This document shows, piece by piece, positions 1,786 to 52,340 of a DNA stretch of 64,000 bases. Within the stretch, counting starts at the first letter, position 1. The number at the start of each line of letters is the position of its first letter. The translations under genes were made by a program, and so were the position numbers. Below the pieces are notes generated by a model. It did no database searches. It was not told the DNA's origin and was given only the letters and a program-made list of their open reading frames with translations. The DNA is taken from NCBI RefSeq assembly GCF_016026235.1, contig NZ_CP065613.1. One strand, given 5' to 3'. This stretch comes from Escherichia coli (lineage in GTDB: Bacteria > Pseudomonadota > Gammaproteobacteria > Enterobacterales > Enterobacteriaceae).

Positions 1786-2062
1786 GCACGGTGCCTGATG
1801 CGACGCTGACGCGTCTTATCAGGCCTACGAGTCGCCCGTATGTAGGCCGGATAAGGCGTTCACGCCGCATCCGGCATTTGGTGCACGGTGCCTGATGCGA
1901 CGCTGACGCGTCTTATCAGGCCTACGAATCGCCCGTATGTAGGCCGGATAAGGCGTTCACGCCGCATCCGGCATTTGGTGCACGGTGCCTGATGCGACGC
2001 TGACGCGTCTTATCAGGCCTACGAGTCGCCCGTATGTAGGCCGGATAAGGCGTTCACGCCGC
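1786..2062. repeat. Tandem array of three ~97-bp REP/BIME-type palindromic units
   Basis: Unit beginning GTGCCTGATGCGACGCTGACGCGTCTTATCAGGCCTACGA…GTAGGCCGGATAAGGCGTTCACGCCGCATCCGGCA recurs with 97-bp period at 1791, 1888, 1985; copies differ by a single base. Confidence 0.9.
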
Positions 2063-2097
2063 TTTTAACCGGCACGATTTACCGGTAAGGATCCAAC

Positions 2098-4434: not shown

Positions 4435-5412
4435 ATGCAGGTCGGACTTACTTCTTCGTCACTCGCCACCGGCGGCGCGCACAGCGCTGCGGTATCGTCG
4501 TCAACCGTTGCGCCCACTCAGGCGGTGCGGCAAAAGCTCCCGGTGACGGCGAGTGAATATCCGGCCTCGCCGCTGATTACCACTCGCCCGCAGCGTTACA
4601 GCGTGCAGCTTAACGACCAGCTCACCACGTTGCAGCAGGCGGATCACTACCTCGGGCAACTGGAGCAGCAGTTGCTCGATTATCGTCATAGCCAGCGTAA
4701 GGGCGGGCAGGCGCAGAGTTCGGCGCTGATGCAGATGCTGGACAAACGCACCGCGCTTTCCGGCGGCGCGGTGGACCGCCAGTTACAGCCGGTGTTGCAG
4801 GGTGAAGCGCGGGTGACCTTTCACTCACCAGATCTGGCAAATCTGGTACACAATTCCACGCCGGGAACGCGTATGTTCAGCGTCTCTGACGGGCGACAGA
4901 CGCAGCTTTCGGCGGTAATGCTATCTGATGATGACAACGCCGGGCAGTATCAGACGCGGCTGACCAACGCCCTGCGCCGCGTGGGCGTGCAGCTACATCA
5001 GCAAGCGGATGGCATCAGTTTCTCCACCACTGAAAAACAGTGGCCCCATATCGAGCGCACCTTAAGCGTGCGTACCGATGGCGATAAATCAGCATTTATG
5101 CCGCTGAAAACCTTTGCTGAGCCGTCACAGGCGGACCGCTTAGCGCAAAGCCTGCAACAGGGCGGGGCGGGGATTTCTCAAATGCTGGAAAACATTAATC
5201 AGCAGCGCGCGCAGATGGCGGTGCAGCAGGAAAAAGCCCGCCAATTGATCGACGGCATGTCCCGCTTCCCGCAAACGGAAAATGCGGTGCAGGCATCGGA
5301 AAACCTCGGCGGCGTACTCGACAGCGCCAATCATAACTATCAGGTGTTATTGCAGGCGGTGAACGGCCAGGCGCGAATTTCCAGCCAGACGGTGAGGAAT
5401 TTATTGGGGTAG
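4435..5412 (+). CDS. lafW: Flag-2 locus protein LafW-like (Gln/Ala-rich, uncertain function)
   Basis: 325-aa ORF directly downstream of lfgL with AGGAACAG SD; assignment by position in laf gene order, not by recognisable motif. Confidence 0.55.
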   Translation: MQVGLTSSSLATGGAHSAAVSSSTVAPTQAVRQKLPVTASEYPASPLITTRPQRYSVQLNDQLTTLQQADHYLGQLEQQLLDYRHSQRKGGQAQSSALMQMLDKRTALSGGAVDRQLQPVLQGEARVTFHSPDLANLVHNSTPGTRMFSVSDGRQTQLSAVMLSDDDNAGQYQTRLTNALRRVGVQLHQQADGISFSTTEKQWPHIERTLSVRTDGDKSAFMPLKTFAEPSQADRLAQSLQQGGAGISQMLENINQQRAQMAVQQEKARQLIDGMSRFPQTENAVQASENLGGVLDSANHNYQVLLQAVNGQARISSQTVRNLLG

Positions 5413-5662
5413 GGTTATTGAAAATCAAACAAATGAGGCTGTCGCAAAAAATCATTTCAGTGCAGAATATGCTATAAATCTGCGGGTTAAAAAGGAATGA
5501 AATGGCCACTCTCAAGCAACTGATGGATAAGCAAAGCCCCGAAAGTCGTAGGCGAATAATTAAAAAAACAGAACGAATCCGGCAAACTATAATTAACAAA
5601 AAATTAGAGTTACCAATAACTACAACTATCAGTAATTCCGATTGATTTCATTCGGAATTTTC

Positions 5663-5702
5663 GTAGGCCGGATAAGACGCGTTTAGCGTCGCATCCGGCA
5701 TT
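5663..5702. repeat. REP palindromic unit
   Basis: GTAGGCCGGATAAGACGCGTTTAGCGTCGCATCCGGCA between convergent genes. Confidence 0.8.
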
Positions 5703-5714
5703 TATTAGCGCTCA

Positions 5715-6557
5715 TCAGCATTTCTGCACAGTATTTAACAACTTCTCTAAATTCTGGTACATCGCGCTATTAATATCACTATTCTGCCAGCCTTCCACAT
5801 TAAACGTTAATTGCCAGCTACCATTGCACTGGTTGCGCAGAACAATATCACTTTCCAGTCGGTTGCGAACATATTTATAATAGGTTGTCATTGTCATATT
5901 ATGCGCTGACAATAAATTATCGAGTTTGTCTTTCCCTGGTGCGAGGGTTTGTGAAAGTAACGGTGCGGAATTATTTTCTTTTCCAGAACTAAGATGAAAT
6001 ATTTTTATTCTTGGACTATTAACGGATTCTTTTACCAGCTGCGGGGCGTCAGGTGTATTTTTTAAGTGTGAATAACCCACGGTCGAGCCAATAAATATAA
6101 CAGCCGCGGTCAAGGCTAACCCCATCAGTCCTTTATGTTTTTTTCTAACAGGCACAGGCGGTGTTGTCGAAGATATCTCTTCTGGCGCTGTTTCTTTTAT
6201 CTGGTCGGTAATAATCAGCGCTTCCGCAGGCGATGACTCCGGCAAAGACACATACTCTTTATTGCATAAGTAACCTTTCTTCGGAATTGTTTTAATAATG
6301 TTCTGTTGTTTGCCATCATCGTCGATAGCAACGCGCAACGCATGAATCGCCGTCGGCAGGCTGTTACCGCCGACAATGCGGTTCTTCCATACTTCGGCAC
6401 ATAAATAAGATCGCGATAAAACTACATCGGCATTTTTTGCTAATGTTTCCAGCAAAATAAAATGGTATTCGCCGAGACGACGTGTTTCACCCGTTTCGCA
6501 ATGTATTAAGGCATTAAGCGACGGGTCCATCCGCCAGTTGTTGATAATAATACTCAT
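5715..6557 (-). CDS. lafZ: ToxR/CadC-like transmembrane transcriptional regulator (N-terminal winged-helix OmpR-type DNA-binding domain, one TM segment, periplasmic C-domain)
   Basis: Translation has OmpR/PhoB-type wHTH region (…LETLAKNADVVLSRSYLCAEVWKNRIVGGNSLPTAIHALRVAI…IKTIPKKGYLC) followed by hydrophobic segment GLMGLALTAAVIFIGSTVGY; ORF extends to 6614 but ATG at 6557 (MSIIINN) is the more likely start. Confidence 0.7.
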   Translation of the reverse strand: MSIIINNWRMDPSLNALIHCETGETRRLGEYHFILLETLAKNADVVLSRSYLCAEVWKNRIVGGNSLPTAIHALRVAIDDDGKQQNIIKTIPKKGYLCNKEYVSLPESSPAEALIITDQIKETAPEEISSTTPPVPVRKKHKGLMGLALTAAVIFIGSTVGYSHLKNTPDAPQLVKESVNSPRIKIFHLSSGKENNSAPLLSQTLAPGKDKLDNLLSAHNMTMTTYYKYVRNRLESDIVLRNQCNGSWQLTFNVEGWQNSDINSAMYQNLEKLLNTVQKC

Positions 6558-6970
6558 AGTTGAGTTTACCTTAGCAAGGGATAAATGTTCCTGATAGTGC
6601 TTTGCATAAAGCACAGTCTTATACGTCCCTGAGAAGATGATTTTTCTGCGTGATAATTAATATTTTATGGTAATAGGATTATTCTTAATCACTATATGGC
6701 GTGGAAATGTAACGAAATGACAGGACAGGTACAATAGCCAAATGTGTACTATTTGCAACGCAATGTAAATTTTGGCATCAGTACATTGAGAAGAAAACGC
6801 ATTAATTGATGGTAATCTTAACTATATCAAGCGTTTGATAAAGACATATTTTGATACCTGGCCATGTGGCAGATATTGCTAATAATCTTTTTATCTGAAT
6901 TTAAACTCTGCTTTTTTTTAGCTAAAAGTGGCATCAGATAATACGTAGCGAAAATTTTTTCATAGCGATT

Positions 6971-6997
6971 TTAAGTTTGCTCCTGAGGTGTCGTTTT
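6971..6997 (+). promoter_or_regulatory. Candidate sigma-28 (FliA/LafS-type) promoter upstream of lafA
   Basis: TTAAGTTT (7/8 to TAAAGTTT) -N11- GTCGTTTT (weak match to GCCGATAA), ~45 bp upstream of lafA ATG. Confidence 0.3.
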
Positions 6998-7042
6998 TAC
7001 AGGGTATCGAAACGAAAACGATTAATCCCAAGGAGCAGTATC

Positions 7043-7957
7043 ATGTTATCTATTAACACCAATAACGCCTCAATGGCCGCCGTTAATGCAATCAGCAAAA
7101 GCAGCTCTTCTCTGTCTACATCTATGGAACGCCTGGCGACAGGTAACCGGATTAACTCTTCTGCCGATGACGCCGCAGGCAAACAAATTGCTAACCGTCT
7201 GACTGCACAGTCCAGCGGTATGGGCGTGGCGCTGAGCAACATCAATGATGCCACCGCGATGCTGCAAACCGCTGACAGCATGTTCGACGAAATGTCTGAC
7301 GTGCTGGGCCGTATGAAAGACCTGTCAACTCAGGCAGCGAACGGCACCTACAGCGACGACGATCTGCAGGCGATGCAGGACGAATACGACGAACTGGGTC
7401 AGCAGATGTCTGACATGCTGCAAAATACCACTTACGGCGGTACCAACCTGTTCGGTGTTTCCGGTACCAGCAACACCGGTACTGACGGTCTGTTCCAGAG
7501 CGCGGTAACTTTCCAGGTGGGCGCGGAATCTTCCGACACCATGACCGTGAATATTTCAAGCCAGCTGAATACCCTGGTGACGGATCTTTCTGCTATCAGC
7601 AACTCCTTCAGTGCGGATCAGGCAGACACCACGGGTACTGCAGGCGTGTCTGGCGGTACTGAGCTGACTGCGTCTGGCTCGGCTAACCAGATGATCACCA
7701 GCATTTCTACCGCGATGGATGACGTGTCGCAGATCCAGTCCAAACTGGGTGCGTCTATTAACCGTCTGAACGACACTGCCAACAACCTGACCAGCATGCA
7801 GGACAACACCGAAGTCGCTATCGGTAACATCATGGATACCGACTACGCGACGGAAGCGTCCAACATGACCAAACAGCAGGTGCTGATGCAAACCGGCATC
7901 ACCATGCTGAAACAGTCCAACAGCATGTCCAGCATGGTTTCCAGCCTGCTGCAGTAA
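7043..7957 (+). CDS. lafA: Lateral flagellin
   Basis: 305-aa product with flagellin N-terminus (MLSINTNNASMAAVNAISKSSSSLSTSMERLATGNRINSSADDAAG) and C-terminus (…TKQQVLMQTGITMLKQSNSMSSMVSSLLQ); AAGGAG SD at 7030-7035. Confidence 0.9.
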   Translation: MLSINTNNASMAAVNAISKSSSSLSTSMERLATGNRINSSADDAAGKQIANRLTAQSSGMGVALSNINDATAMLQTADSMFDEMSDVLGRMKDLSTQAANGTYSDDDLQAMQDEYDELGQQMSDMLQNTTYGGTNLFGVSGTSNTGTDGLFQSAVTFQVGAESSDTMTVNISSQLNTLVTDLSAISNSFSADQADTTGTAGVSGGTELTASGSANQMITSISTAMDDVSQIQSKLGASINRLNDTANNLTSMQDNTEVAIGNIMDTDYATEASNMTKQQVLMQTGITMLKQSNSMSSMVSSLLQ

Positions 7958-7960
7958 TGG

Positions 7961-7999
7961 CGGACTTGCCGGATGCGGCGTAAACGCCTTATTCGGCCT
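7961..7999. repeat. REP palindromic unit downstream of lafA
   Basis: GCCGGATGCGGCGTAAACGCCTTATTCGGCCTAC. Confidence 0.75.
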
Positions 8000-8003
8000 A
8001 CGA

Positions 8004-8037
8004 ACAACACCGCCTGCGGGCGGTGTTGTGCTTTCTG
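8004..8037 (+). terminator. Rho-independent terminator after lafA
   Basis: Stem ACAACACCGCC / GGCGGTGTTGT with 4-nt loop, followed by GCTTTCT. Confidence 0.75.
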
Positions 8038-8109
8038 CGGCAGGCTTTTTTCCGCCAGACCGGAAACGCCATTTCCGCCAGTTTTTCAATCTATTGATTA
8101 TTCACATAA

Positions 8110-8137
8110 AAAATATTGGCACGCCTTTTGCCAATAA
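8110..8137 (+). promoter_or_regulatory. Candidate sigma-28-type promoter upstream of lafB
   Basis: GCCAATAA at 8130-8137 (7/8 to -10 consensus GCCGATAA), 27 bp upstream of lafB ATG; -35 match weak. Confidence 0.3.
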
Positions 8138-8163
8138 CCTGACATCGTTACCCGGAGTCATCA

Positions 8164-9480
8164 ATGATCAACCCAAGAACCATTGCGCAAGAAATCGCGT
8201 ATGCGGATGTTGCCACTCAGGCGGCAAACTTGCAGGAAAAGCAAACGGAGCTGGATGCCGAAAGCAGCGGCCTGGACTCGCTCAGCTCAGCGTTGAGCGA
8301 TTTCCAGAGCGCCGTCGACGCGCTGAACAGCGATACCGACGGCCCGGTGACTTTTGCCGCCACCAGCAATAATGACTCGGCGACTGTTTCCGCTAACTCG
8401 CAGGCGCAGGCGGGAAGCTACTCATTTTTCGTTGAGCAACTGGCGCAGGGGCAGCAAACCACGTTCAGTATGGGCGACGACGCCTTTTCCGCCACCGGCA
8501 CTTTTGAACTGACGATGGGCGACAGCACCATGGATATCGATCTGTCTGCGGCAGATCAGAACGGTGACGGCGACGGTTATATCGACGCCAGCGAGCTGGT
8601 GAGCGCGATTAACGACTCCGACGATAATCCGGGCGTTTCAGCGGCACTGGTAAAAACCGACGGCACCACCACGATAATGTTCACCTCGGATAGCACCGGG
8701 GCGCAGAGCGCGTTTTCGGTGAGCGTAACGGGGCATGACGCCAGCAACGATAGCACCAGCGCGCCCGTTGCCACGGATGTTTCCTCAGCCCAGGACGCGA
8801 TTATTCATCTCGGCAGCGCCACGGGGCCAGCCATCACCAACAGCAGCAACACTTTTGATGATGTGATCCCCGGCGTCACCATGACCTTTAGCGAAGTCAG
8901 CGACTCTGACAGCGATCTCACCACCTTTAACATTAGCGAAGATTCCAGCGCCACCGAAGACAAAGTGCAGACCTTTGTCGATGCCTATAACACGCTGATT
9001 GATACCGTCGATTCACTGACCACCAGCGGCAGCGACAGTACCAGCGCCGGGGTTTTTGCCGGAGATGCGGGACTCAGCTCACTGGCAAACCAGCTCGATG
9101 ACATCGCCCACGCCAGCTACAACGGCGAGTCGATTGTCGATTACGGCATTACGCTCGACTCCAATGGCCATTTGCAGATCGACTCTGATCAGTTCAACGA
9201 CGCGATGAAAAGTGACCCTGACGGTCTGACCTCTATTTTCGTTGGCGACAACAGCATGGTGGCGCAGATGGACGACCTGATTAACACCTACACGGACTCC
9301 AGCAACGGCATCATCACCCTGCGCCAGCAGAACATTGACGATCAGATGAGCAAAATTCAGGACGAAGGCGATCAGCTTACCGATACCTATAACGCCAACT
9401 ACGACCGTTATCTCGAGGAGTACACCAACACGCTGGTCGAGGTGTACACCATGAAAGCCAGCATGGCGGCATTCGCGTAA
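8164..9480 (+). CDS. lafB: Flagellar filament cap protein (FliD family)
   Basis: 438-aa ORF following flagellin; Ser/Thr/Asp-rich central region, FliD-like termini. Confidence 0.75.
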   Translation: MINPRTIAQEIAYADVATQAANLQEKQTELDAESSGLDSLSSALSDFQSAVDALNSDTDGPVTFAATSNNDSATVSANSQAQAGSYSFFVEQLAQGQQTTFSMGDDAFSATGTFELTMGDSTMDIDLSAADQNGDGDGYIDASELVSAINDSDDNPGVSAALVKTDGTTTIMFTSDSTGAQSAFSVSVTGHDASNDSTSAPVATDVSSAQDAIIHLGSATGPAITNSSNTFDDVIPGVTMTFSEVSDSDSDLTTFNISEDSSATEDKVQTFVDAYNTLIDTVDSLTTSGSDSTSAGVFAGDAGLSSLANQLDDIAHASYNGESIVDYGITLDSNGHLQIDSDQFNDAMKSDPDGLTSIFVGDNSMVAQMDDLINTYTDSSNGIITLRQQNIDDQMSKIQDEGDQLTDTYNANYDRYLEEYTNTLVEVYTMKASMAAFA

Positions 9481-51000: not shown

Positions 51001-52340
51001 CGCGAGTGAACGGCCAAAATGCCGTTGCTCAGCCACTGGTGCTGAACGTTGCAGGTGACGCATCTAAGGCTGAGATTCGTGATATGACAGTGAAGGTTAA
51101 TAACCAACTGGCTAATGGACAGTCTGCTAACCAGATAACCCTGACCGTCGTGGACAGCTATGGTAATCCGTTGCAGGGGCAAGAAGTTACGCTGACTCTG
51201 CCGAAAGGTGTGACCAGCAAGACGGGGAATACGGTAACAACCGATGCGGCAGGTAAAGCCGACATTGAGCTGATGTCAACGGTTGCGGGAGAACACAATA
51301 TTTCCGCTTCGGTGAATGGTGCTCAGAAGACGGTCACGGTGAAATTCAAGGCGGATTTCAGTACCGGTCAGGCGACCCTGGAGGTTGATGGCAGCACGCC
51401 AAAAGTGGCAAACGACAATGATGCCTTTACGCTGACGGCAACGGTTAAGGATCAATACGGCAACCTTCTGCCTGGCGCTGTGGTCGTCTTTAATCTGCCT
51501 CGGGGCGTCAAACCGCTTGCAGACGGTAATATCATGGTGAACGCCGACAAGGAGGGTAAAGCGGAACTGAAAGTGGTCTCCGTGACTGCCGGAACGTATG
51601 AGATCACGGCGTCGGCAGGAAATGACCAGCCTTCAAATGCGCAGTCTGTAACGTTTGTGGCCGATAAGACTACGGCGACCATCTCCAGTATTGAGGTGAT
51701 TGGCAACCGTGCAGTGGCGGATGGCAAAACCAAACAGACGTATAAAGTTACGGTGACTGATGCCAATAACAACCTGTTGAAGGATAGCGACGTGACGCTG
51801 ACTGCCAGCTCGGAAAATTTAGTTCTGGATCCTAAAGGGACGGCGAAAACTAATGAGCAAGGACAGGCTGTTTTCACCGGCTCTACCACTATCGCAGCGA
51901 CATATACACTCACGGCGAAAGTGGAACAGGCCAACGGTCAGGTATCGACGAAAACTGCTGAATCTAAATTCGTCGCGGATGATAAAAACGCGGTGCTCGC
52001 CGCATCTCCAGAACGTGTAGATTCTCTGGTGGCGGACGGGAAGACTACTGCAACAATGACGGTTACCCTGATGGCGGGAGTCAATCCCGTAGGAGGAAGT
52101 ATGTGGGTCGACATTGAGGCTCCGGAAGGAGTGACGGAGAAGGATTATCAATTCCTGCCGTCGAAGGCTGACCATTTCTCAGGTGGGAAAATCACGCGTA
52201 CATTTAGTACCAGCAAGCCAGGTGTCTATACGTTCACATTCAACGTACTGACGTATGGCGGGTACGAAATGGCGCCTGTGAAGGTGACAATTAACGCCGT
52301 TGCTGCAGAGACTGAAAATGGCGAGGAGGAGATGCCATAA
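48084..52340 (+). CDS. eaeH: Intimin/invasin-family inverse autotransporter adhesin (EaeH/FdeC-type), full length
   Basis: 1418-aa ORF: N-terminal beta-barrel region followed by many Big-type repeats including three ~100-aa near-repeats (…GELEVMPKLNGQNAAANAAKVTVVA / …GELRVMPLFNGQPAATEAAQLTVIA / …GQLSVMPRVNGQNAVAQPLVLNVA). Confidence 0.85.
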   Translation: MSRYKTGHKQPRFRYSVLARCVAWANISVQVLFPLAVTFTPVMAARAQHAVQPRLSMGNTMVTADNNVEKNVASFAANAGTFLSSQPDSDATRNFITGMATAKANQEIQEWLGKYGTARVKLNVDKDFSLKDSSLEMLYPIYDTPTNMLFTQGAIHRTDDRTQSNIGFGWRHFSGNDWMAGVNTFIDHDLSRSHTRIGVGAEYWRDYLKLSANGYIRASGWKKSPDIEDYQERPANGWDIRAEGYLPAWPQLGASLMYEQYYGDEVGLFGKDKRQKDPHAISAEVTYTPVPLLTLSAGHKQGKSGENDTRFGLEVNYRIGEPLAKQLDTDSIRERRVLAGSRYDLVERNNNIVLEYRKSEVIRIALPERIEGKGGQTLSLGLVVSKATHGLKNVQWEAPSLLAEGGKITGQGSQWQVTLPAYRPGKDNYYAISAVAYDNKGNTSKRVQTEVVITGAGMSADRTALTLDGQSRIQMLANGNEQKPLVLSLRDAEGQPVTGMKDQIKTELTFKPAGNIVTRSLKATKSQAKPTLGEFTETEAGVYQSVFTTGTQSGEATITVSVDGMSKTVTAELRATMMDVANSTLSANEPSGDVVADGQQAYTLTLTAVDSEGNPVTGEASRLRFVPQDTNGVTVGAISEIKPGVYSATVSSTRAGNVVVRAFSEQYQLGTLQQTLKFVAGPLDAAHSSITLNPDKPVVGGTVTAIWTVKDAYDNPVTSLTPEAPSLAGAAAEGSTASGWTNNGDGTWTAQITLGSTAGELEVMPKLNGQNAAANAAKVTVVADALSSNQSKVSVAEDHVKAGESTTVTLVAKDAHGNAISGLALSASLTGTASEGATVSSWTEKGDGSYVATLTTGGKTGELRVMPLFNGQPAATEAAQLTVIAGEMSSANSTLVADNKAPTVKTTTELTFTVKDAYGNPVTGLKPDAPVFSGAASTGSERPSAGNWTEKGNGVYVATLTLGSAAGQLSVMPRVNGQNAVAQPLVLNVAGDASKAEIRDMTVKVNNQLANGQSANQITLTVVDSYGNPLQGQEVTLTLPKGVTSKTGNTVTTDAAGKADIELMSTVAGEHNISASVNGAQKTVTVKFKADFSTGQATLEVDGSTPKVANDNDAFTLTATVKDQYGNLLPGAVVVFNLPRGVKPLADGNIMVNADKEGKAELKVVSVTAGTYEITASAGNDQPSNAQSVTFVADKTTATISSIEVIGNRAVADGKTKQTYKVTVTDANNNLLKDSDVTLTASSENLVLDPKGTAKTNEQGQAVFTGSTTIAATYTLTAKVEQANGQVSTKTAESKFVADDKNAVLAASPERVDSLVADGKTTATMTVTLMAGVNPVGGSMWVDIEAPEGVTEKDYQFLPSKADHFSGGKITRTFSTSKPGVYTFTFNVLTYGGYEMAPVKVTINAVAAETENGEEEMP

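Follow-up and report, generated by a model that had tools for sequence, protein, structure and literature searches.

Positions 5715–8137 of a 64,000-nucleotide stretch of Escherichia coli DNA (contig NZ_CP065613.1; the whole stretch is called the window here) are the known regulatory junction of cluster 3 of Flag-2, the lateral-type second flagellar system, where the regulator gene lafZ diverges from the lateral flagellin gene lafA, which is in turn followed by lafB. With a probability of about 0.72, we read lafA as a late gene with a sigma-28-type promoter served by the sigma factor LafS, the lafB operon as dependent on LafK and sigma-54, and lafZ as the gene of a ToxR/VtrA-type regulator with a promoter of its own. 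This layout matches the known hierarchy of lateral flagella; it combines a known type of regulator with one real late promoter, is ordinary in kind and does not overturn current understanding.

The window carries Flag-2 cluster 3 from lfgH to lafU, followed by dinB. Its positions 5400–8500 are 100% identical to E. coli FDAARGOS_943, whose annotation calls the genes transcriptional regulator, lafA and fliD, and an earlier sequence-only reading of the window had named these genes correctly. At least 80% of the 5400–8500 stretch is carried by ∼1263 of 5426 complete E. coli genomes. The cluster naming of the Flag-2 locus reportedly goes back to Ren et al. 2005. The name cluster 3 is used by De Maayer et al. 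2020, who describe LafZ as a putative transmembrane regulator without a flag-1 counterpart (PMC6993521, PMC7526173).

For comparison, scanning one genome per species found a LafZ relative at 17 loci of Escherichia spp., Pseudocitrobacter, Citrobacter and Phytobacter, and more distant loci (L021–L027) were added by look-ups of remote LafZ homologues. The alignment of the lafZ–lafA intergenic region comprises 16 loci from the same four genera.

A probable late promoter of the sigma-28 type precedes lafA

The lateral flagellin gene lafA (7043–7957, + strand; 304 amino acids) is identified by NCBIfam NF033376 (E 2.6e-201) and by Pfam Flagellin_N and Flagellin_C. Its promoter, PlafA (6971–6997, +), is composed of a −35 element TTAAGTTT (6971–6978), an 11-nt spacer and a −10 element GTCGTTTT (6990–6997). 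It resembles the FliA-dependent class 3 promoters of E. coli and Salmonella (TAAAGTTT-N11-GCCGATAA) in its −35 element, which agrees with TAAAGTTT at 7/8 positions, in the 11-nt spacer and in its position before a flagellin gene. The −35 match and spacing had been pointed out in the sequence-only reading and are indeed present, although a 7/8 half-site alone is not significant, as the 64-kb window has 51 sites that agree with TAAAGTTT at 7 or more of the 8 positions. Conservation adds to the match: the −35 and −10 elements (TTAAGTTT and GTCGTTTTTACAG) are invariant in 16/16 aligned loci, while the 11–12-nt spacer and the DNA further upstream diverge, save for the A/T tract AAAATTTTTT (6951–6960, +), which is conserved at ∼−45 to −55 of PlafA and from its position may be an UP element. 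The distant locus L025 has TTAAGTTT-N12-GTCGCTTT upstream of lafA.

Sites of the same type lie 33–46 bp upstream of lfgK and lfgM. The lfgK site, TTAAGAAT-N12-GCCGCTTT, is conserved in Escherichia, Citrobacter, L025 and L027, and the lfgM site reads TAAAGTTT-N12-ACCGCTTT. The −10 elements of lfgK and lfgM resemble that of lafA in being GYCGYTTT-like, as would be expected if LafS recognised a −10 of its own. The pooled pattern has one match in the 64-kb window, at lafA, and in a complete 49-kb Flag-2 locus it finds exactly lafA, lfgK and lfgM, all in the right orientation and against 0.01 matches in shuffled sequence, a count that is partly circular because the consensus was derived from the sites it then counts; the absence of other matches is informative. 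The same set emerged from experiments in Plesiomonas, where FliA(L) was found to control flgKL(L), flgMN(L) and the lateral flagellin gene (PMC11242183).

A FliA-family sigma factor, LafS, is encoded in the same cluster (11764–12480, +; NCBIfam NF009091, E 1.1e-134; Pfam Sigma70_r2 and Sigma70_r4), and it is most likely this locus-encoded factor that reads PlafA. The proposal of a sigma-28-type late promoter at this place before lafA is supported, and the distinct −10 element GYCGYTTT, compared with GCCGATAA of FliA, is a modest new lead.

Downstream of PlafA, the lafA leader (6998–7042, +) is nearly invariant and A-rich, with a Shine-Dalgarno sequence AAGGAG at 7030–7035; folding of the leader revealed no structure (z-score 0.29). 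A GC-rich hairpin resembling an intrinsic terminator (8004–8029, +) follows lafA, its stem kept in all loci and its loop variable, and lafA is thus predicted to be monocistronic. The T-run after the hairpin is strong in the distant loci L025 and L027 and weak in E. coli, where the hairpin was hence missed by the pattern scan.

Three further observations concern these promoters and their surroundings. The number of repetitive extragenic palindromic (REP) elements between lafA and the hairpin (7954–8000) varies, the spacer measuring 206 bp in the window, 258 bp in L004 and 404 bp in L006. The lfgK promoter of the window (2030–2075; 2600–2670 in L001) lacks the −35 element TTAAGAAT and keeps the −10 element GCCGCTTT: a piece of ∼56 bp that FDAARGOS_943 and all other loci possess has been lost between two copies of TTCACGCCGC, bordering an array of REP elements and bacterial interspersed mosaic elements (1780–2060). 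The only match in the window to the FliA consensus with ≤ 3 mismatches is TAAAGTTA-N11-GCCAATAA at 51743–51769, near fdeC and the gene of a helix-turn-helix (HTH) regulator; it has two mismatches, and about half of the shuffled sequences would yield one match of this grade by chance.

A predicted sigma-54 promoter precedes the lafB operon

The fliD homologue lafB (8164–9480, +; identified by annotation and Pfam) is the first gene of the lafBCDEFSTU operon. The sigma-54 promoter PlafB, TGGCACGCCTTTTGC (8117–8131, +), lies 32 bp upstream of it, with the −24 GG at 8118–8119 and the −12 GC at 8130–8131. PlafB is the sole exact match to TGGCAC-N5-TTGC in the 64-kb window, and its TGGCA-N7-TTGC is invariant in 15/15 loci compared. 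Other sigma-54 sites of Flag-2 are found upstream of lfgB and of a gene of variable region 1.

Upstream of PlafB, the inverted repeat CGGAAAC-N3-TTTCCG (CGGAAACGCCATTTCCG, 8061–8077), of which GGAA…TTCC is kept in orthologues, is a candidate enhancer-binding site for LafK; the motif also occurs before a second Flag-2 sigma-54 promoter (lfgN–hyp1 spacer, L020). Between this repeat and PlafB, a perfect match to the integration host factor (IHF) consensus was read from the sequence, AATCAATAGATTG = WATCAANNNNTTR (8087–8099, − strand); it is partially conserved in orthologues and may be an IHF site. LafK itself, which has a sigma-54 interaction domain, is encoded in complete Flag-2 loci, outside this window. 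Because a sigma-54 promoter is accompanied by an upstream repeat and an IHF-like site, the lafB operon is predicted to belong to the middle class and to be activated by LafK.

The sequence-only reading had instead placed a sigma-28 −10 element before lafB. The octamer in question, GCCAATAA (8130–8137, +), does match GCCGATAA at 7/8 positions, but its role as a sigma-28 element finds no support, since the conserved element here is the sigma-54 −24/−12 pair, while the bases of GCCAATAA vary. The octamer overlaps the −12 element of PlafB, its −35 partner at 11-nt spacing agrees at 4/8 positions only, and 90 matches of at least 7/8 to GCCGATAA in the 64-kb window put it at chance density. In the 14 orthologous loci GCCAATAA is not conserved, and orthologues have, for instance, GCTATCAC, GCTGACTG, GCTTAATA and GCTATTAC. 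We therefore rejected GCCAATAA as a chance half-site, unconserved, without a −35 partner and lying on an invariant sigma-54 promoter.

A second promoter of the PlafB type was seen in locus L020 (22031–22157), where CGGCACGCTTATTGCA is preceded by the same repeat, here GCGGAAAC-N4-TTTCCGCC. It stands before the first gene of variable region 1, which encodes a hypothetical protein and is followed by a glycosyltransferase gene, and its sequence suggests that flagellin-modification genes may belong to the LafK regulon.

LafZ is a ToxR/VtrA-type regulator

The lafZ coding sequence runs from a conserved ATG at 6557 to 5715 on the − strand and encodes 280 amino acids. On that strand, 6258–6557 encode a winged helix-turn-helix (wHTH), 6132–6257 a linker, 6072–6131 a transmembrane (TM) helix and 5718–6071 a periplasmic domain. 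A longer open reading frame (ORF) of 299 codons, beginning at a GTG (to 6614), was discarded as over-extended: all orthologues begin with MSII.NNWRMD at ATG 6557, and in the orthologue alignment the sequence upstream of this ATG is not conserved.

Several lines of evidence confirm that LafZ has the architecture of the bitopic one-component regulators ToxR and VtrA, with a cytoplasmic wHTH, one TM segment and a periplasmic alpha/beta domain, in agreement with the ToxR/CadC architecture proposed in the sequence-only reading. Pfam Trans_reg_C (PF00486) matches residues 25–97 (E 1.4e-13) and is the sole Pfam domain; there is no receiver domain. A profile of ten orthologues searched against the PDB matched the DNA-binding domain of ToxR best (E 5e-10), followed by CadC (1.4e-6). 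The single hydrophobic segment, residues 143–162 (mean Kyte-Doolittle score 1.85; modelled as a helix at 144–164), is directly preceded by RKKHK, so that by the positive-inside rule the N terminus is predicted to face the cytoplasm. The C-terminal domain was modelled at a predicted local distance difference test (pLDDT) score of ∼80–90, and the best fold match of this predicted model is VtrA; Cys244 and the C-terminal Cys280 are invariant among orthologues, and the periplasmic domain thus combines the ToxR/VtrA fold with a Cys pair. The AlphaFold2 confidence for the wHTH is low owing to a shallow alignment, and the assignment of the wHTH therefore rests on the sequence matches.

In its order of wHTH, TM segment and small periplasmic alpha/beta domain, LafZ is like VtrA of the VtrA/VtrC pair of Vibrio parahaemolyticus and ToxR of the ToxR/ToxS pair of Vibrio. 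Its wHTH is closest in sequence to that of ToxR, and it shares with VtrA and ToxR the periplasmic Cys pair including a C-terminal Cys, whereas the periplasmic sequences themselves show no similarity. CadC of E. coli is the best NCBIfam match, confined to the wHTH and scoring 34 bits against a CadC cut-off of 400 bits; it resembles LafZ in its bitopic one-component architecture and resembles E. coli LafZ in having no co-transcribed periplasmic partner.

Across genera the wHTH is almost invariant, and the linker and TM segment evolve fast. Among the lafZ alleles without a partner gene (see below), the ratio of nonsynonymous to synonymous substitution rates (dN/dS) is 0.02–0.05 in the wHTH and 0.08–0.11 in the periplasmic domain, with dS saturated; lafZ of Escherichia is therefore not decaying, being under purifying selection. 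The gene is divergent from lafA in Escherichia, Citrobacter, Phytobacter, L025 and L027, and it is not next to lafA in the distant loci L021, L022 and L026.

Between E. coli and Pseudocitrobacter, lafZ and the intergenic block are far more diverged (dS saturated; LafZ 64% identical) than the flanks, where LafA is 99.7% and LafW 94–97% identical. Along the DNA, lafZ and the intergenic region (5700–7040) are 40–80% identical to the Pseudocitrobacter loci L008 and L009, and the flanking lafW and lafA 90–98%. The lafZ–intergenic block is a deeply diverged mosaic allele block within a recently shared locus.

Conserved islands and a candidate lafZ promoter in the intergenic region

Because lafZ starts at ATG 6557, the lafZ–lafA intergenic region measures 485 bp (6558–7042) rather than the ∼430 bp of the sequence-only reading, which had followed the over-extended GTG frame. 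The region has a GC content of 34%, lies inside a 1.7-kb low-GC island (32–45% versus 52–62% in the flanks) and is just 40–60% identical between E. coli and Pseudocitrobacter.

Within this variable DNA, lafZ probably has its own sigma-70 promoter (6731–6758, −), composed of a −35 TTGCAA (6753–6758), a 16-nt spacer and a −10 TATTGT (reverse complement of 6731–6736); both hexamers are invariant in the 16 loci, and the spacer is variable. Islands conserved across these loci lie 110–300 bp upstream of the lafA promoter. I1, GGAAATGTAACGAAA (6703–6717), contains AATGTAA, which is repeated in I2, TATTTGCAACGCAATGTAAATT (6750–6771), an island that overlaps the candidate lafZ −35 and extends just upstream of it, and these two islands flank the candidate lafZ promoter. 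I3, ATATTGCTAATAATCTTTT (6873–6891), is placed ∼115–130 bp upstream of the predicted lafA start and is found once in the complete 49-kb Flag-2 locus.

The three islands are the best candidates for regulator binding, and I1 is possibly a LafZ site. A sigma-54 reading of I2 was ruled out, the GG at −24 being missing. When the islands were set against the remaining Flag-2 intergenic regions, lafK–lfiM among them, the sole overlaps were chance 7-mers, and no related motif turned up elsewhere in Flag-2.

A possible partner gene overlaps lafZ in other genera

In Citrobacter, Phytobacter, L021, L025, L026 and L027, the 3' end of lafZ is overlapped by 17–26 nt by an ORF whose product of 157–161 amino acids has a signal peptide and two invariant Cys and is predicted to be beta-rich. 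The ORF was located in L010–L019 (e.g. L012 6929–7408), L021 (1815–2288), L025 (6917–7390), L026 (6863–7336) and L027 (6902–7387), and it sits where the genes of ToxS, VtrC and TcpH sit. In the ToxR-like family a co-transcribed periplasmic partner such as ToxS, VtrC, TcpH or PsaF is typical, although not universal, and CadC works without one.

No Escherichia or Pseudocitrobacter locus has the partner gene, nor does the window, and a tblastn search for a remnant in the window found none; a REP element and an HTH-gene fragment are all that lies downstream of lafZ there. The partner protein matched nothing in Pfam or NCBIfam, a profile search of the PDB returned noise only, and homology to ToxS or VtrC was not detected. 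A moderate-confidence model with eight strands and one helix (pLDDT 62.6) gave nothing significant in Foldseek, lipocalins appearing at E above 1 only, and a search of 5.8 billion proteins returned only entries named “hypothetical protein”. Because no relative in sequence or fold was found, the likeness of the partner to ToxS and VtrC is positional only. A published flag-2 comparison assigns this spot to the “cargo” of variable region 2, on average one hypothetical protein (∼0.6 kb).

The partner gene is a modestly new lead. LafZ and its overlapping partner may form an unrecognised two-protein periplasmic sensor of the ToxRS/VtrAC type dedicated to the secondary flagella of Enterobacterales, which in Escherichia and Pseudocitrobacter would have been converted to a partner-less, still-selected sensor, with LafS promoters (GYCGYTTT −10) insulated from FliA (GCCGATAA) so that two flagellar systems coexist in one cell. 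Taken as a whole, this proposal is tentative and on the unlikely side.

Regulatory hierarchy and alternative readings

In the order that we favour, LafK and sigma-54 would drive lafBCDEFSTU, the operon that encodes LafS, and LafS would then read PlafA (TTAAGTTT-N11-GTCGTTTT) to give a monocistronic late lafA transcript. The order LafK/sigma-54, LafS, lafA would be that of V. parahaemolyticus and Aeromonas. LafZ would sense a periplasmic cue and, judging from the behaviour of its family, bind the conserved AT-rich islands of the intergenic region. Its target is putative in each case, whether lafA, lafZ itself, lafK or another promoter, and the membrane-signal input to the LafS-dependent PlafA that the sequence-only reading had suggested is likewise putative, with gene adjacency as its basis. 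The assignment of sigma factors and activators to particular sites is our inference from sequence.

In the lateral systems of V. parahaemolyticus, A. hydrophila and P. shigelloides, the flagellin gene is likewise a separate late unit of the sigma-28 type, the fliD…fliA…motAB-type operon encoding the sigma factor likewise has a sigma-54 promoter, and flgKL- and flgMN-type genes likewise have the late promoter type. E. coli Flag-2 differs from them in its −10, GYCGYTTT rather than GCCGATAA, and in that its expression has not been demonstrated.

Several points weigh against this reading. The promoter classes are predicted from conservation, which supports them well, and E. coli Flag-2 has yet to be proven functional (PMC3032704). 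The fliD(L) operon of Plesiomonas also responded to FliA(L) (PMC11242183), so that sigma-28 may contribute to the expression of lafB, for instance when transcription reads through from lafA. Locus L027, the most distant examined, has no recognisable lafA −35 block at the standard spacing, and the count of pooled-pattern matches is partly circular, as noted. The −10 element GTCGTTTT agrees with the E. coli FliA −10 GCCGATAA at just 4/8 positions, only G, C, G and T being common and the 3' half reading TTTT where FliA has ATAA, and a full FliA consensus scan with ≤ 3 mismatches misses the lafA site. The last two points would also fit a reading in which the TTAAGTTT…GTCGTTTT block is an operator, or a sigma-70 promoter for another factor, instead of a sigma-28-type promoter; we consider this very improbable, since two conserved blocks around a variable 11–12-nt spacer are a promoter signature, the distance to the Shine-Dalgarno sequence fits a promoter, and the same block type precedes lfgK and lfgM, whose counterparts depend on FliA(L) in Plesiomonas.

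The model of the sequence-only reading, in which LafS promoters drive both lafA and lafB and LafZ relays a membrane signal directly to them, draws on 7/8 octamers that do exist at 6971–6978 and 8130–8137, on the divergence of lafZ and lafA in three genera and in L025 and L027, and on the effect of FliA(L) on the Plesiomonas fliD(L) operon. It is nonetheless distinctly improbable: GCCAATAA is unconserved, has no −35 partner and lies on an invariant sigma-54 promoter, the candidate operator islands are far upstream of PlafA, and L021, L022 and L026 have lafZ without an adjacent lafA. Flagellar class 3 sigma-28 promoters, moreover, normally need no activator. A different arrangement would put LafZ atop the hierarchy, controlling lafK or the whole locus on an envelope or periplasmic cue, its adjacency to lafA being incidental and the islands serving lafZ autoregulation only. 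ToxR, TcpP and VtrA typically act at the top of cascades, the AATGTAA islands flank the candidate lafZ promoter and not PlafA, and lafZ is kept together with its partner gene where lafA is not adjacent, but the islands share no motif longer than 7 nt with lafK–lfiM or other Flag-2 intergenic regions, which leaves this arrangement as an unlikely though serious possibility. That E. coli lafZ is a decaying relic which has lost its partner, in a locus that is often degenerate, is suggested by the absence of the partner ORF from the window and all Escherichia and Pseudocitrobacter loci, by the insertion sequence (IS) and internal stop in Flag-2 of FDAARGOS_943, by the deleted lfgK −35 of the window and by the unproven function of Flag-2. 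We hold it to be rather improbable, because the lafZ ORF is intact, dN/dS is low among the partner-less alleles (0.02–0.05 and 0.08–0.11 in the two domains, at saturated dS), both periplasmic Cys are invariant and CadC functions without such a partner. The reading with a LafS-dependent lafA, a LafK/sigma-54-dependent lafB operon and an independently promoted lafZ is thus the one that we retain.

Neighbouring features

Annotation and family scans place lfgH' to lfgL upstream of 4435, lafW at 4435–5412 and an HTH-gene fragment at 5505–5648. Further downstream, lafC to lafF lie between lafB and lafS, and lafT and lafU extend up to 14282, with dinB next after lafU.

The HTH (antitoxin-like) gene fragment lies inside an E. 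coli-specific insertion of ∼200 bp between lafW and lafZ (5435–5650), which is adjoined by a REP element (5666–5709). For E. coli 042, a toxin-antitoxin system of two genes is reported from this site (PMC3032704). An Rfam scan of 5300–8300 found nothing beyond sub-threshold matches to the REP-derived naRNA4. Flag-2 of FDAARGOS_943 bears an IS and an internal stop.

Implications

The analysis maps, at sequence level, the regulation of a flagellar system present in about a quarter of complete E. coli genomes (1263/5426), and sets right a sigma-28 assignment at lafB that was plausible but mistaken. For reporter work, PlafA would serve as the read-out of LafS and PlafB as that of LafK and sigma-54. 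LafZ, together with its unannotated partner in other genera, is the likely environmental input and could explain when Flag-2 switches on.

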